From Candidatus Levyibacteriota bacterium (lineage in GTDB: Bacteria > Patescibacteriota > Microgenomatia > Levybacterales > UBA12049), in the NCBI GenBank assembly GCA_016186645.1, contig JACPLF010000005.1, forward strand, positions 33,257-97,256: a stretch of 64,000 bases of DNA, in the 5' to 3' direction. Positions 22,086-26,399 of this stretch are shown in pieces. The position numbers and the translations under genes are program-made. Each line of letters opens with the position of its first letter. Positions within the stretch are counted from its first letter, which is position 1. The notes beneath the pieces were generated by a model. That model was not told the DNA's origin, did not search any database, and saw nothing but the letters and a program-made list of their open reading frames with translations.

Positions 22086-22168
22086 GCCCAGGTGATGAAA
22101 TGGTAGACATGCAGTGTTCAGAACGCTGTGTCCGCAAGGATTTGGGAGTTCGAGTCTCCCCCTGGGCA
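22086..22168 (+). tRNA. tRNA-Leu (anticodon CAG)
   Basis: Class II tRNA. Acceptor GCCCAGG pairs with CCTGGGC. Anticodon loop TTCAGAA. Confidence 0.8.
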
Positions 22169-22193
22169 CACATATGCTAGAATAGGTAAGTTT

Positions 22194-22275
22194 GGGCTCG
22201 TGGCGGAACTGGTATACGCGTACGCTTGAGGTGCGTATTCCGCAAGGAGTGGAGGTTCAAGTCCTCTCGAGCCCA
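22194..22275 (+). tRNA. tRNA-Leu (anticodon GAG)
   Basis: Acceptor GGGCTCG pairs with CGAGCCC. Anticodon loop TTGAGGT. Long variable arm. Confidence 0.8.
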
Positions 22276-22279
22276 CCCT

Positions 22280-22352
22280 GGACTCTTGGCTCAGCTGGTA
22301 GAGCGTCTCATTTACACTGAGAAGGTCAGAGGTTCGAATCCTCTAGAGTCAC
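22280..22352 (+). tRNA. tRNA-Val (anticodon TAC) with apparent G1-A72 mismatch
   Basis: D-arm GCTCAGCTGGTAGAGC. Anticodon arm TCTCA-TTTACAC-TGAGA. T-arm AGAGG-TTCGAAT-CCTCT. Confidence 0.6.
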
Positions 22353-22418: not shown

Positions 22419-22823
22419 TTGGGAGACAATATTTTCTTCAAAGACGCCAGAATTGAAATAGTCAGACAGTTTTTCGAGAAATACAAATCGCCACTCGTTC
22501 CTTTTGCTGAAAATATCGTCGAGGATGCGGATAAATACGGTCTTGATTACAAGCTTCTTCCCGCTATTGCGATGCAAGAATCAAATCTGTGCCAGAAAAT
22601 CATAACTGACTCCTACAACTGCTGGGGATTTGGAATATATGGAAAAAAAGTCACCAGATTTGAAAGCTATCCTGAGGCTATTGATACTGTAACCAGAACC
22701 CTTGTTAATAACTATGTTGCCGGAGGATTGACTACTCCGCAGGAAATTATGAAAAAGTACACTCCCTCCAACAATGGATCCTGGGCGTACAGCGTAAGTT
22801 ACTTCATGAACCTCCTTCAATAA
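22419..22823 (+). CDS. Glucosaminidase (GH73/FlgJ-like) domain protein, TTG start, no signal peptide
   Basis: PAIAMQESNLCQK...NCWGFGIYG resembles the glucosaminidase motif. Paralog of the 23046 ORF. Confidence 0.4.
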   Translation: MGDNIFFKDARIEIVRQFFEKYKSPLVPFAENIVEDADKYGLDYKLLPAIAMQESNLCQKIITDSYNCWGFGIYGKKVTRFESYPEAIDTVTRTLVNNYVAGGLTTPQEIMKKYTPSNNGSWAYSVSYFMNLLQ

Positions 22824-23045: not shown

Positions 23046-23645
23046 ATGAATAATACTGAAAAGCTACAAAGTAAGCTTAGGCGGGTAATCATTATGAAGA
23101 ATTTATTTTATCTAATAATTTTTATAATTACTATAACCGCTATAAACGTTAAACCTTCTTATGCTGCGGAAATTTCTGCAGGGTCTTCTGCCGCGCTCTT
23201 AAAACCTGTTGCGAAAGAACCCGATAGTCGTGTAAAAATTCTTAGGGAATATCTTGGCCAATATGATTCCCCGCTGCAGCCTTATGCGCAGGATTTTGTG
23301 GAGATTGCTGACAAATATGGGCTGGACTGGAAACTTGTTGCTGCTATTTCAGGCGTGGAATCTACTTTTGGGAAGCAAATCCCATATCAATCATTTAACG
23401 GATGGGGATGGGGAATTTATGGCACCAATATGATCAGATTTTCATCTTGGACACAGGGTATTGAAACCGTGTCCGAAGGATTGAGAACTAATTATCTTAA
23501 TAAGTGGGAAGCAAGAGATGTTTATGAAATCGGAAGATTTTATGCTGCTTCTCCAACATGGGCACAAAGGGTTGATTATTTTATGAGAAAAATTGATGAG
23601 CTTAAAAATCAAAAACTAGCCCAAAACCTATCTATTTCGCTGTAA
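23046..23645 (+). CDS. Secreted glucosaminidase (GH73-like) domain protein
   Basis: N-terminal signal/TM. AAISGVESTFGKQIPYQSFNGWGWGIYG motif. Confidence 0.45.
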   Translation: MNNTEKLQSKLRRVIIMKNLFYLIIFIITITAINVKPSYAAEISAGSSAALLKPVAKEPDSRVKILREYLGQYDSPLQPYAQDFVEIADKYGLDWKLVAAISGVESTFGKQIPYQSFNGWGWGIYGTNMIRFSSWTQGIETVSEGLRTNYLNKWEARDVYEIGRFYAASPTWAQRVDYFMRKIDELKNQKLAQNLSISL

Positions 23646-23772
23646 CTTGTGTATAATAATCTTCAATCACCAGCGGACGTTACACGCGGACGTAGCGAAA
23701 ATGCCCGCCCGCAACGACTTCGCAAGCTCGTCTTGCGTGTCGGGCGGGGCAGACCTGCCCGACAGTGCCAAT

Positions 23773-23853
23773 GCCAGGGTGGCGAAATGGTAGACGCGCA
23801 TGGTTTAGGACCATGTGGGGAAACCTTTGGAGGTTCGAGTCCTCTCCCTGGCA
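23773..23853 (+). tRNA. tRNA-Leu (anticodon TAG)
   Basis: Acceptor GCCAGGG pairs with CCCTGGC. Anticodon arm CATGG-TTTAGGA-CCATG. Long variable arm. Confidence 0.8.
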
Positions 23854-23860
23854 CAGTCTT

Positions 23861-23930
23861 TGGCAGGCGGGCGCGCATGGTTTAGGACCATGTCCTTAAA
23901 GGGATGGAGGTTCAACTCCTCTCCGACCCA
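23861..23930 (+). pseudogene. Degenerate tRNA-Leu(TAG) copy: identical anticodon arm, D-loop deleted, 5' half replaced by GC-rich repeat sequence
   Basis: GCGCATGGTTTAGGACCATG is identical to the upstream tRNA. T-arm GGAGG-TTCAACT-CCTCT is present. No matching 5' acceptor strand. Confidence 0.4.
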
Positions 23931-23958
23931 CTATAGTTCTAATTTGAATAATATACGT

Positions 23959-24471
23959 ATGAACCAAAAAGGAAATGTAAATAACGCACTAATTATCACA
24001 ATAGTTATTCTGTTAATCGGTATTGGCGTATATTTTGCGTTCTTCAAAAAACAAAATTCCTTTCCGCCGTATTCCGTTACTGCCAATAATACTCTTTCGA
24101 CCAATATTGATGGCTATTTTGAGACTTGCATGAATAATACATCTGTCTATAAAAAGAAAAATAGTTCATGGGAAAAAGTTTCGAATGAATTACCAAGAAA
24201 AGGACTTTACTACTTGGATGACAAATTTTTCGGGTATGGGATGTGCGATGTTGTTTATTGCGACAAGCTGCCAATGCCCTACACAATGAAACTTGTTGAA
24301 TACAAAAAAGTAGGTGAAAAAACTCCACCTCCAGATAGCGGTAGCAGCGCAAATGTTTTACCCATGTATCAAACTGTTTCATTGAATGATGATATTAAAA
24401 TTAATATAGAATACTTCAGCGACAATAATTGTCAAAACAAAAAAACAATCTCTACTGTCATAAAAAAATAA
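23959..24471 (+). CDS. Secreted/membrane-anchored hypothetical protein (paralog A)
   Basis: ATG at 23959. N-terminus MNQKGNVNNALIITIVILLIG shared with the next gene, including a 20-bp leader. Confidence 0.45.
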   Translation: MNQKGNVNNALIITIVILLIGIGVYFAFFKKQNSFPPYSVTANNTLSTNIDGYFETCMNNTSVYKKKNSSWEKVSNELPRKGLYYLDDKFFGYGMCDVVYCDKLPMPYTMKLVEYKKVGEKTPPPDSGSSANVLPMYQTVSLNDDIKINIEYFSDNNCQNKKTISTVIKK

Positions 24472-24487
24472 TTTGAATAATATACGC

Positions 24488-25549
24488 ATGAACCAAAAAG
24501 GAAATGTAAATATCATACTGGTTATAATTATTGTCGCACTCGTTGGCGCAGGGGCTTATTTTATTTTGAATCGTCAAGCTCAACCAACACCTAGACTAAT
24601 TACGGTCAGCGGTGAAATTACATGCTTGCCTAAAAAAGGGCAAGGTGGAAGCGAGGAATGCGCCATAGGACTTAGGGGAACAAATGGTCAACATTATGGC
24701 TTGAAAAACGTCTTCAAGCTTGACCCAGAAAATAAATTTTCTGTAACAGGATTGCGTGTCGAAATCTCTGGTACATTTAACCCTGAAGAAATGAAAGGAC
24801 CTTATGGCAGTAAATATGATGCGGTAGGCACAATTGACGTCATTTCAATAAAAAAAGTTGAAGGAAGTACCCAATCCAATTTTGAAAAAATAATTAGAAC
24901 AGTGGGTGAAAAAGAAAGTTCTTTCTTAATTCAAAAAATCAATCCTAATAACGTTGATGGCCGTTGGTATGAAATATATCCAATTGAGATACCGAATGAT
25001 CCTGGCATTCCAAAAACTTTGCATATCGGGGATGACATAGGTTATGTCTGCGAAGGCGTATCAGAAAAACTTACAAGCATTAATTTTTCTGGTCAGACAA
25101 TAACTTTTACTAAAGCTAAAGTCATTCCATCCTACGGCGGATGTCCGATTTGTCTTGACGGTAACACGCTGATAGACACGCCTTCAGGATTAGTACCAGT
25201 AAAAAATTTACAAGTTGGCATGTCGGTTTGGACAACGGACAAAACTGGTCAACGTGTATCCGGTGTTATAACCAAAACTTCAAAAGTACCGGTACCGTTA
25301 ACCCACCAGATGATCCATTTGGTTCTTGCCAACGGACGAGGACTATTTGTTTCTCCTGGACATCCAACCATTGATGAACGTATCGTTTGGGATCTTTCAG
25401 TTGGTGACATCTACGATGGCTCTACTGTTGCGAGCGTAGAACGTGTTTCTTACGATCAAGAAGCAACGTACGATATATTGCCATCAGGTGAGACCGGATT
25501 CTATTGGGCTAATGGCATACTACTTAACAGTACACTTAACTATGAATAA
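24488..25549 (+). CDS. Secreted protein with C-terminal Hint (Hedgehog/intein-like, BIL-type) domain (paralog B)
   Basis: Shared signal-anchor N-terminus. C-terminal GG|CPICLDGNTLIDTPSG...VWTTD...HLVLANGRGLFVSPGHP matches Hint domain blocks. Confidence 0.55.
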   Translation: MNQKGNVNIILVIIIVALVGAGAYFILNRQAQPTPRLITVSGEITCLPKKGQGGSEECAIGLRGTNGQHYGLKNVFKLDPENKFSVTGLRVEISGTFNPEEMKGPYGSKYDAVGTIDVISIKKVEGSTQSNFEKIIRTVGEKESSFLIQKINPNNVDGRWYEIYPIEIPNDPGIPKTLHIGDDIGYVCEGVSEKLTSINFSGQTITFTKAKVIPSYGGCPICLDGNTLIDTPSGLVPVKNLQVGMSVWTTDKTGQRVSGVITKTSKVPVPLTHQMIHLVLANGRGLFVSPGHPTIDERIVWDLSVGDIYDGSTVASVERVSYDQEATYDILPSGETGFYWANGILLNSTLNYE

Positions 25550-26399
25550 AAATATCGCTGCTTTACAAAAAGAGCCAAACGGAACAATCAGACTTACAGT
25601 CACAATTCCCTCTTCCGATGTTAAAAAAACATGGGAGGAAGTTTTCGCGGATGCTGTAAAAAATATAGAAGTTCCCGGATTTCGAAAAGGCAAAGCTCCA
25701 AGAAACTTGACTGAGGGAAAAATTGATAAAGAAAAAATCCGTGAAGAAGTTCTGAAAAAGCTTTTGCCAATAGCGTACACGCAGGCAATAAAAACCCACG
25801 GAATAAAACCAATTATAAATCCCAAGATTCATGTAGAAAAATTGGAAGACCCTTCGACAAGCTCAGGGCAAGTCCGGGACTGGCAATTCACTGCATTAAC
25901 TTGCGAAGCGCCAATTGTTAACCTAAATAATTATAAAGATAATATAAAAAGTTTAACTGCAAAAGCAAAAATAGTTATTCCCGGCAAAGACAAACAGGAA
26001 GTAAAGTTTGAGGAAATTGTAAAAGCCTTACTTGAAAGTGTGAAAGCTGAAATTCCGACAATTTTAATTGACAATGAAACAGATAGGCTTTTGTCCCAGA
26101 CTCTTGAAGATGTTAAAAAATTGGGGCTGACGCTCGATCAATATTTATCTTCCACTGGGAAAAAGCCCGAAGATTTAAGAGCGGAGTATAGAGCAAAAGC
26201 GGAAAACGATATCAAGCTTGAGTTCGCGCTTTTGAAAATTGCAGAGGAGGAAAAGATTGTGGTTGAAGAAAAAGAAATTAACGAAGCTATACTGGCTGCC
26301 AAAACTGAAGATGAGAAAAAGAACCTGGAAGCCAACCGTTATCTTCTGGCAAGTATTTTGAGGCAGCAAAAAACCCTTGATTTTCTCAAGAATTTGTGA
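25542..26399 (+). CDS. tig: Trigger factor (short form)
   Basis: N-terminal ribosome-binding signature VPGFRKGKAP. C-terminal helical arm domain. Confidence 0.65.
   Translation: MNKNIAALQKEPNGTIRLTVTIPSSDVKKTWEEVFADAVKNIEVPGFRKGKAPRNLTEGKIDKEKIREEVLKKLLPIAYTQAIKTHGIKPIINPKIHVEKLEDPSTSSGQVRDWQFTALTCEAPIVNLNNYKDNIKSLTAKAKIVIPGKDKQEVKFEEIVKALLESVKAEIPTILIDNETDRLLSQTLEDVKKLGLTLDQYLSSTGKKPEDLRAEYRAKAENDIKLEFALLKIAEEEKIVVEEKEINEAILAAKTEDEKKNLEANRYLLASILRQQKTLDFLKNL

Follow-up and report, generated by a model that had tools for sequence, protein, structure and literature searches.

In the window analysed here, a 64,000-nucleotide stretch of Candidatus Levyibacteriota bacterium (contig JACPLF010000005.1), two adjacent genes lie between a tRNA-Leu gene and the trigger factor gene tig: gene 1 (23959..24471, + strand), encoding 170 residues, and gene 2 (24488..25549, + strand), encoding 353 residues. 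The gene 2 protein is predicted to be an exported, membrane-anchored chain that ends in a Hint domain, with a near-universal Cys-Pro-x-Cys motif spanning the junction at which the Hint domain would probably cut itself off. Both reading frames are real, since each protein has an identical entry at NCBI, both from one Candidatus Levybacteria metagenome-assembled genome (MAG), and many homologues. The gene 2 entry is named 'Hint domain-containing protein [Candidatus Levybacteria bacterium]', and the domain is thus already annotated automatically.

Architecture of the gene 2 protein

The protein is composed of four segments. At the N-terminus is a signal anchor (residues 1–30; 24488..24577, + strand), a single helix over residues 6–30 in the secondary structure of the AlphaFold2 (AF2) model, followed by an accessory β-barrel of the oligonucleotide/oligosaccharide-binding (OB) fold (residues 36–123; 24593..24856, + strand), which has the order β1–β3, helix, β4–β5 and is found in few homologues only. 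Next comes a conserved small β-barrel, the mid-domain (residues 131–221; 24878..25150, + strand), which ends in the sequence GGCPI and contains the cysteine pair C188 and C219; 50 homologue clusters consist of proteins that end with this domain. The remaining 132 residues (222–353; 25151..25546, + strand) form the Hint domain, as delimited by Pfam, AF2, Foldseek and profile alignment. The AF2 model, built on 65 homologues, has a mean predicted local distance difference test (pLDDT) score of 88.6.

Signal peptides, anchors or lipoboxes are present at the N-termini across the gene 2 family, and relatives contain fused PG_binding_1, TIG and PKD domains. This architecture supports the proposal of a first-pass annotation, made from the sequence of the window, that the product of gene 2 is exported, anchored by its N-terminus and equipped with a Hint domain at its C-terminus.

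The C-terminal Hint domain

The profile Hint_2 (PF13403) of Pfam matches the gene 2 protein with 30.0 bits against a cut-off of 28.4, and matches each of the 16 gene 2 relatives tested. It is the best match in Pfam; the Vint profile scores below its cut-off, and a scan of NCBIfam gave no meaningful match. Compared with the PDB by Foldseek, the C-terminal part of the model is matched at a probability of 1.00, with target-normalised TM scores of 0.68–0.79, by the gp41-1 intein, the Ssp and Npu DnaB mini-inteins, the bacterial intein-like (BIL) domain of Clostridium thermocellum (CthBIL), Tetrahymena BIL2 and Hedgehog (1at0 and 6tyy). The Hint fold, a block A cysteine, block B and a curated Pfam profile, by which membership of the HINT superfamily is judged, are all found in gene 2. 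The profile match, which had been proposed as the check, and the modelled fold both bear out the first-pass assignment, and the C-terminus of gene 2 is, by these predictions, a genuine Hint domain.

Residues C222, S289, H292 and D329 are invariant among the 65 homologues. In a wider set of 79 bacterial and archaeal sequences S289, H292 and D329 are invariant in all 79; these sequences were picked by the CPxC pattern, which fixes C219 and C222 in them by construction. The SPGHP segment corresponds to block B (S289-P-G-H292), D329 represents block F, and the VWTTD segment contains the conserved residues W248 and T249. The expected catalytic cysteine and T/S-x-x-H motif are likewise conserved, the latter with serine in place of threonine.

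The C-terminal end of the domain departs from that of inteins. It reads ANGILLN-S348-T-L-NYE in gene 2 and ANGIL-x-x-S348-T-L as a family motif, with S348 opposite the terminal Asn of inteins and a variable Gly, Asp or Asn opposite their penultimate His. In about 200 family members the chain ends 3–7 residues past S348 (at residue 353 in gene 2), and among them no His-Asn end, terminal Asn or C-extein was found. The Asn/His-type terminal residues named earlier as a mark of the domain are thus absent throughout the family, which rules out an intein and not a Hint domain. Splicing and C-terminal cleavage are not expected of a domain with this sequence, since it lacks the Asn from which a succinimide would form, as well as a C-extein. 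With these two reactions set aside, the remaining one, most likely by the conserved residues, would be N-terminal cleavage through a Cys222 thioester, as in a cleavage-only Hint domain of the Hedgehog Hog or B-type BIL kind (PMC7765530).

These features bear directly on whether the domain could be an intein, that is, a splicing mobile element, or the release module of a polymorphic toxin. Its fold and its block A and block B motifs are common to inteins and to PT-HINT, the Hint domain of polymorphic toxins. Against both identities stand the missing C-extein and terminal Asn, the absence of an endonuclease from the gene 2 Hint family, and the end of the chain directly after the Hint domain, which leaves no toxin to release. 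PADLOC gave no defence-system matches, and no gene 2 relative is encoded in 35 candidate stretches of viral contigs from IMG/VR. The architecture excludes this explanation, to which we attach next to no weight.

The predicted cleavage junction and Hint-less homologues

Spanning the boundary between the mid-domain and the Hint domain is the motif C219-P220-I221-C222 (25142..25153, + strand), with the predicted scissile bond I221|C222 between nucleotides 25150 and 25151. The pattern C219-P220-x-C222-L223 is invariant in the gene 2 family. Placement of the first Hint residue, Cys1, follows from the agreement of four observations. In the family profile L223 lies opposite residue 2 of the gp41-1 intein, which places the intein Cys1 opposite C222; Hint_2 and Vint align from residues 221/222 of the protein onwards, opposite model positions 1/2; the segment C222-L-D-G-N-T-L-I, of the pattern C-L-x-G-N/D-T-x-I, fits the spacing of intein block A, with the first strand of the model at residues 228–231; and Hint-less homologues end immediately before C222. 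Because these agree, Cys1 is assigned to C222 and the predicted bond to GGCPI|C. The GG|C junction of the first-pass annotation is therefore displaced: Cys1 is C222, three residues after C219.

The Hint-less homologues emerged when 1.84 billion cluster representatives were searched with the mid-domain (residues 131–218); this gave 88 proteins, 86 of which were read. Exactly at C-P-x, mostly as GGCPI, end 50 of the 86; a further 19 run on into a full Hint domain, and six bear a Hint domain that is cut by the end of the contig. The stop codons of two Hint-less genes were checked. In L088 the stop is TAA, a terminator hairpin lies behind it and the next gene begins about 100 nucleotides on; in L089 the stop is TGA. 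No Hint coding sequence lies 3' of the stop in either. Because these stops are real and no Hint frame follows them, the Hint-less homologues are taken to be natural proteins whose sequences stop precisely at the predicted bond I221|C222.

These proteins belong to a sizeable unnamed family of exported proteins (P0148–P0229; L088 3001–4566 and L089 3001–3828) whose C-terminus is exactly GGCP[ILK], and no Pfam domain was found in this CPx-ending family. A selenocysteine at Hint position 1 (CPxU), by which homologues would only seem to stop at the codon of C222, was considered and rejected on the TAA and hairpin of L088 and on the unrelated frame that follows the TGA of L089.

The same homologues weigh on the idea that the Hint domain no longer cleaves and has a structural or a binding role at the tip of a surface protein. 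Serine for threonine in block B, the loss of the C-terminal catalytic residues and the low sequence similarity to active inteins would all fit such a role. The invariance of Cys1, the block B His and the block F Asp in bacteria and archaea is, however, hard to explain without catalysis, and the Hint-less homologues end exactly where the scissile bond is predicted; we consider a non-cleaving domain distinctly improbable.

The cysteine at position −3

About 198 of 200 junctions in the family are crossed by a CxxC motif, with the pattern CP[IVKRL]C; the exceptions are one C-x4-C and two junctions in which Ser or Ala replaces Pro. In most members C219 has one possible partner 26–32 residues upstream (C188 in gene 2), and every Hint-less protein has an upstream partner cysteine about 31 residues before its terminal one. 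This conservation suggests a putative structural disulfide, C188–C219, stapling the GGCPI tail to the barrel. In seven Hint-bearing proteins (from Anaerolineae, a Methanoperedens bin and one member of the candidate phyla radiation (CPR)) the preceding domain is a different one that holds no other cysteine, and CPI|C is kept. Because of these seven, the cysteine at −3 appears from the sequences to travel with the Hint domain.

A second partner for this residue is Cys1 itself. N-terminal cleavage of the engineered Ssp DnaE intein, and of the native MoaA intein of Pyrococcus abyssi (Pab), is blocked by a disulfide between Cys-3 and Cys1 until this bond is reduced (PMC3922620), and the Ssp DnaE structure, PDB 3nzm, is among the structural matches of the gene 2 Hint domain. 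By analogy, a C219–C222 disulfide could gate the gene 2 Hint domain by redox state.

A proposed mechanism of cleavage

Established here are the fold, the family membership, the conservation of residues, the domain boundary, the exported architecture and the distribution of the family. With these in place, the following course of events is, taken as a whole, the one we consider probable. The gene 2 protein would be exported and held in the membrane by its N-terminal helix. Outside the cell it would fold into two OB-like β-barrels followed by the 132-residue Hint domain at the C-terminus. An N-to-S acyl shift at Ile221–Cys222 would then yield a thioester, whose resolution would cut the chain and free the Hint domain, leaving an anchored stalk that ends in GGCPI, the same end as that of the Hint-less homologues. 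Cys219 may be bonded to Cys188 as a staple, or to Cys222, pausing the reaction until it is reduced.

The cut, what becomes of the thioester and any control by redox state are what we infer, and several points weigh against this proposal. All claims on the activity of the Hint domain rest on conservation, and the membrane topology of the protein is assigned by analogy. The Hint_2 alignment covers only the first 82 of 147 model positions, the N-terminal half, and the profile match to solved inteins is weak (E values of 0.001 and 0.29). Block B carries Ser where Thr is usual, and the C188–C219 pairing and the C219–C222 disulfide are both putative. The expected product, moreover, equals the Hint-less homologues, which leaves the benefit of carrying a Hint domain unexplained.

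Alternatively, the Hint thioester might be passed to a nucleophile, joining the C-terminus of the stalk covalently to a peptidoglycan amine, a lipid, the S-layer or a partner cell; the protein would then do by itself what sortase anchoring, Hedgehog cholesteroylation or BUBL-type ligation achieve. The Hint domains of Hedgehog and BUBL use this chemistry (PMC7765530), and Tetrahymena BIL2 is among the best structural matches; PG_binding_1 domains occur in gene 2 relatives, and the strong conservation of the Hint domain (60–79% identity across CPR lineages) argues for more than a disposable pro-peptide. The 50 Hint-less clusters, however, end in a plain CPx carboxylate, which indicates that the stalk need not be activated in order to function. 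Past the Hint domain there is no sterol-recognition-like or acceptor-binding extension, some carriers are archaea without peptidoglycan, and no conserved neighbouring gene was found. Transfer is thus a possible but rather unlikely fate of the thioester.

A bolder version, which we hold to be unlikely, combines both ideas: the CPxC-Hint unit would be a redox-gated device in which reduction of Cys-3/Cys1 gives a GGCPI thioester and then covalent joining to a molecule of the envelope or of a partner cell, and which has spread horizontally. If true, redox-gated joining would provide sortase-independent anchoring or covalent adhesion in CPR bacteria, in DPANN archaea and in other single-membrane microbes. 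In one Curtissbacteria genome (two assemblies), a sortase gene lies two genes 5' of a Hint-family gene (L001 4419–5156), which may be coincidence.

Gene 1 and the shared 5' segment

Gene 1 and gene 2 begin alike. A repeat of 44 nucleotides is present at 23940..23983 (+ strand), comprising a 19-nucleotide leader and codons 1–8 of gene 1, and at 24469..24512 (+ strand), comprising the stop codon of gene 1, the 19-nucleotide leader and codons 1–8 of gene 2. The copies contain the leader, the eight codons (MNQKGNVN) and one further base, and differ by a single mismatch, T/C, immediately before the ATG. There are exactly two matches to this segment within the window, with none expected from shuffled sequences, and beyond it the similarity of the two 5' ends decays (66 nucleotides at 85%). 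The duplicated leader noticed earlier is thus genuine, its extent being 44 nucleotides rather than 47 and eight codons rather than nine.

The two genes had on this ground been taken for tandem secreted paralogues, and a tandem duplication in which one copy then gained the Hint domain would account for the near-identical 44 nucleotides at the 5' ends and for the similar signal anchors. The BLASTP similarity of the two proteins is, however, confined to residues 1–35, the leader and membrane helix, and for the mature parts, which come from unrelated families, a common origin is refuted. Each mature part has its own family of homologues, found elsewhere without the other, and the mid-domain and Hint domain keep together as one conserved unit in bacteria and archaea alike. 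A whole-gene duplication is accordingly a very remote prospect.

The gene 1 family consists of 23 proteins in which an anchor of the MNQKGF type is joined through a Pro-rich linker to a Cys-containing domain some 125 residues long; it has no Pfam domain, and a PDB sequence search with gene 1 gave chance-level matches only. The gene 2 family is larger, with 751 matches in the homologue search, and the two families are not neighbours in the other genomes inspected. From its sequence, gene 1 is predicted to encode a small anchored surface protein unrelated to gene 2 beyond the anchor.

The residue after Lys-Gly is Asn in the two window genes only; in other homologues of both families that begin with this motif it is Phe, occasionally Leu, Ile, Ser, Pro or Val. 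The leaders 5' of the genes of close relatives differ from those in the window and from one another. Because the two genes share a derived change of TTT to AAT as well as identical upstream bases, the sequences point to homogenisation of the 5' ends within this genome by recent gene conversion or recombination, with no duplication of the whole gene.

An N-terminal M-N-Q-K-G-F with a hydrophobic helix behind it is shared by CPR surface-protein families that are otherwise unrelated. This motif resembles a prepilin (class III) leader, without the Glu at +5. A test of the window proteins for type IV pilins gave no Pfam N_methyl match at E ≤ 1, with a hydrophobic residue at +5 and Asn at +1. One gene 1 homologue directly follows a PilM-type pilus operon (L085 1–4739).

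Distribution and probable transfer of the Hint module

A scan of one genome per GTDB species gave 186 loci of the gene 2 family. Among bacteria the carriers are many CPR lineages, Anaerolineae, Acetothermia and Acidimicrobiia; among archaea they are Woesearchaeota, Micrarchaeota and Nanoarchaeota (DPANN), Thaumarchaeota including the chromosome of Nitrosotalea devanaterra (LN890280.1, around 1.2467–1.2480 Mb), Bathyarchaeota and Methanoperedens bins. Identity over residues ~133–351 across these loci is 45–76%, and among CPR lineages it is 60–79%. The first-pass annotation had suggested a host-interaction factor of an episymbiont; this reading finds no specific support, the module being present also in free-living ammonia-oxidising archaea and in Anaerolineae. 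Since its carriers span CPR, DPANN, Thaumarchaeota, Anaerolineae and Acidimicrobiia, the Hint module, as identified by sequence, is not an episymbiont speciality.

In a neighbour-joining tree of the Hint part, Thaumarchaeota and Anaerolineae stand apart, the CPR 'phyla' are mixed, and four Acidimicrobiia fall inside CPR. The GC fraction of the family genes is about 0.44–0.50 regardless of that of the flanks (0.35 or 0.59). The mixing in the tree and the independence of gene GC from the flanks together point to probable horizontal transfer of the Hint module. In the four Acidimicrobiia/Ilumatobacteraceae MAGs (L009, L010, L012 and L016) the gene stands after a tRNA-Ala gene and has a GC fraction of 0.49 against 0.54–0.59 in the flanks. 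Barring mis-binned contigs, these copies look by sequence as if Actinobacteria had received them from CPR-like donors.

Among bacterial loci, a same-strand tRNA gene ends at most 400 nucleotides before the start of the family gene in 21 of 53 cases (13 of 36 in CPR and all four in Acidimicrobiia); among archaeal loci this was seen in none of 27. Of the other open reading frames in the same loci, 19 of ~344 (about 5–6%) stand behind a tRNA gene, and bacterial family genes do so about seven times more often. The tRNAs concerned are those for Ser, Ala, Arg, Leu and Asn (loci L004–L083); examples lie at L006 4909–4998, L040 4879–4963 and L045 4621–4707, besides the tRNA-Ala genes of L009, L010, L012 and L016. 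The adjacency may come from an integration hot spot, or from transcription by the tRNA promoter or read-through. No conserved neighbouring gene of the gene 2 family was found in the genomes inspected.

Two relatives of the locus illustrate its changing content. One, with a gene 1 of 74% identity, has a tRNA 3' end, gene 1, a 70-nucleotide spacer and tig, and no Hint gene; the other, with a Hint gene of 70% identity, has a helix-turn-helix reading frame, the Hint gene and a tig-type spacer, and no gene 1. This difference between relatives, together with the enrichment of tRNA adjacency in bacteria, upholds the earlier description of a variable accessory spot after a tRNA.

Neighbouring features of the locus

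Directly 5' of the gene pair is a tRNA-Leu gene with anticodon TAG (23773..23854, + strand; called by ARAGORN and by the Rfam tRNA model at 57 bits). Starting 18 nucleotides after its end is a direct repeat of its 3' 53 nucleotides, from the anticodon arm to the T arm (23872..23924, + strand; 81% identity), for which neither ARAGORN nor Rfam called a tRNA and a functional tRNA is not indicated. Of the tRNA-Leu and pseudo-tRNA recorded earlier, the former is therefore confirmed, and the latter is better described as a partial copy, uncalled as a tRNA, which could be an att-like remnant of integration. A GC-rich stretch just 5' of the tRNA-Leu gene (23655–23772) has about 60% GC against 38% for the window and contains an 11-bp hairpin; its folding is unremarkable (z = −1.9). 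In a scan of 23400–24100, Rfam matched the tRNA only, leaving the partial copy and the GC-rich stretch unmatched, and a scan of 23600–25700 for promoters and terminators found nothing above the shuffled expectation.

Downstream, the ATG of tig (25542..26399, + strand; Pfam Trigger_N and Trigger_C) overlaps the end of gene 2 by 8 nucleotides, and the overlap of stop and start at 25542–25549 reads ATGAATAA. Two relatives (L092 584–653 and L093 1350–1392) have a spacer of about 70 nucleotides 5' of tig with a conserved AAAACTTGAAAT(T/C)GTC element, and the insertion in the window appears to have removed or replaced this spacer.

Upstream of the tRNA-Leu gene lies a pair of glucosaminidase/SLT-like genes (22419–22823 and 23046–23645). 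Their products, as had been noted, are true paralogues (43% identity, E value of 2e-32), and neither reaches the gathering score of Pfam Glucosaminidase or SLT. An N-terminus resembling a signal peptide is present in the second product and apparently missing from the first. The window contains 13 tRNA genes, including a Leu-Leu-Val cluster (22086–22352) just 5' of this pair.

Comparison with known Hint systems

Intein-like Hint domains of bacteria have been known for about twenty years, and their biological role is still unclear. The CPxC-Hint subfamily described here appears undescribed in the literature searched: no paper was found that links Hint domains with Patescibacteria or CPR, a query for Hint_2/PF13403 being swamped by the human HINT2 gene, and for Thaumarchaeota and Hint the sole match was a paper on intein homing. 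The subfamily offers a natural experiment, in that at least 19 clusters have the cargo domain with a Hint tail and 50 have the same domain ending at the predicted cut; the contribution of a terminal Hint domain to a surface protein can thereby be tested directly. Its module is common to ultra-small bacteria and archaea and to cultivable ammonia oxidisers, at 45–79% identity, and its invariant natural CPxC is the motif that intein engineers introduced at the junction as a redox switch.

Closest in the junction itself are the redox-trap inteins (Ssp DnaE CPGC, PDB 3nzm, and Pab MoaA), in which, as in gene 2, Cys-3 and Cys1 form a C-x-x-C at the N-terminal junction. In the gene 2 family, by contrast, the CPxC is natural, near-universal and part of a Hint domain predicted to be extracytoplasmic and cleavage-only, and Cys-3 has in most members an alternative partner in C188, its disulfide being putative.

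Among bacterial Hint domains, the B-type BIL domains have all intein splicing motifs except the C-terminal one, occur in variable, non-conserved exported proteins and are expected to undergo N-terminal autocleavage, and A-type domains end in a conserved His-Asn (PMC7765530). The gene 2 family is without this His-Asn and in that respect is not of the A-type. To the B-type/Hint_2 (PF13403) class, compared by description only, the gene 2 domain is alike in standing in an exported bacterial protein, in having the N-terminal intein motifs and in lacking the C-terminal one. It differs in that 82 of 147 Hint_2 positions are aligned, in always occupying the extreme C-terminus, and in its CPxC junction and S-x-x-H. 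The hosts usually given for BIL domains are proteobacterial, whereas the gene 2 family spans CPR, DPANN, Thaumarchaeota and Chloroflexi. The PT-HINT domains of polymorphic toxins (CdiA, MafB and Rhs) likewise occur in exported bacterial proteins and are thought to be autoproteolytic, but they lie upstream of a C-terminal toxin and beside immunity genes; gene 2 has no downstream domain and no immunity-like partner, its next gene being tig.

Two eukaryotic systems share the overall plan. In Hedgehog, as in gene 2, a secreted cargo is followed by a terminal Hint domain (Hog) that cleaves only at its own N-terminus by way of a Cys thioester, a cleavage that for gene 2 would be the predicted one; gene 2 has no sterol-recognition region past the Hint domain, and its host is prokaryotic. 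The Tetrahymena BUBL BIL domain (PDB 6y75 and 6tmm) is the second-best structural match, and in both proteins a small domain with a Gly-Gly-type end precedes the Hint cysteine. BUBL, however, keeps its C-terminal Asn (the solved constructs carry N143A) and sits between ubiquitin-like repeats, whereas the domain before the gene 2 Hint is an OB-like barrel ending in GGCPI, and nothing follows. The chemistry of the gene 2 Hint domain is thus of a known kind, and the subfamily is marked out, as judged from its sequences, by the CPxC junction, Ser for the terminal Asn, Hint-less twins that end at the predicted cut and a spread over both prokaryotic domains.

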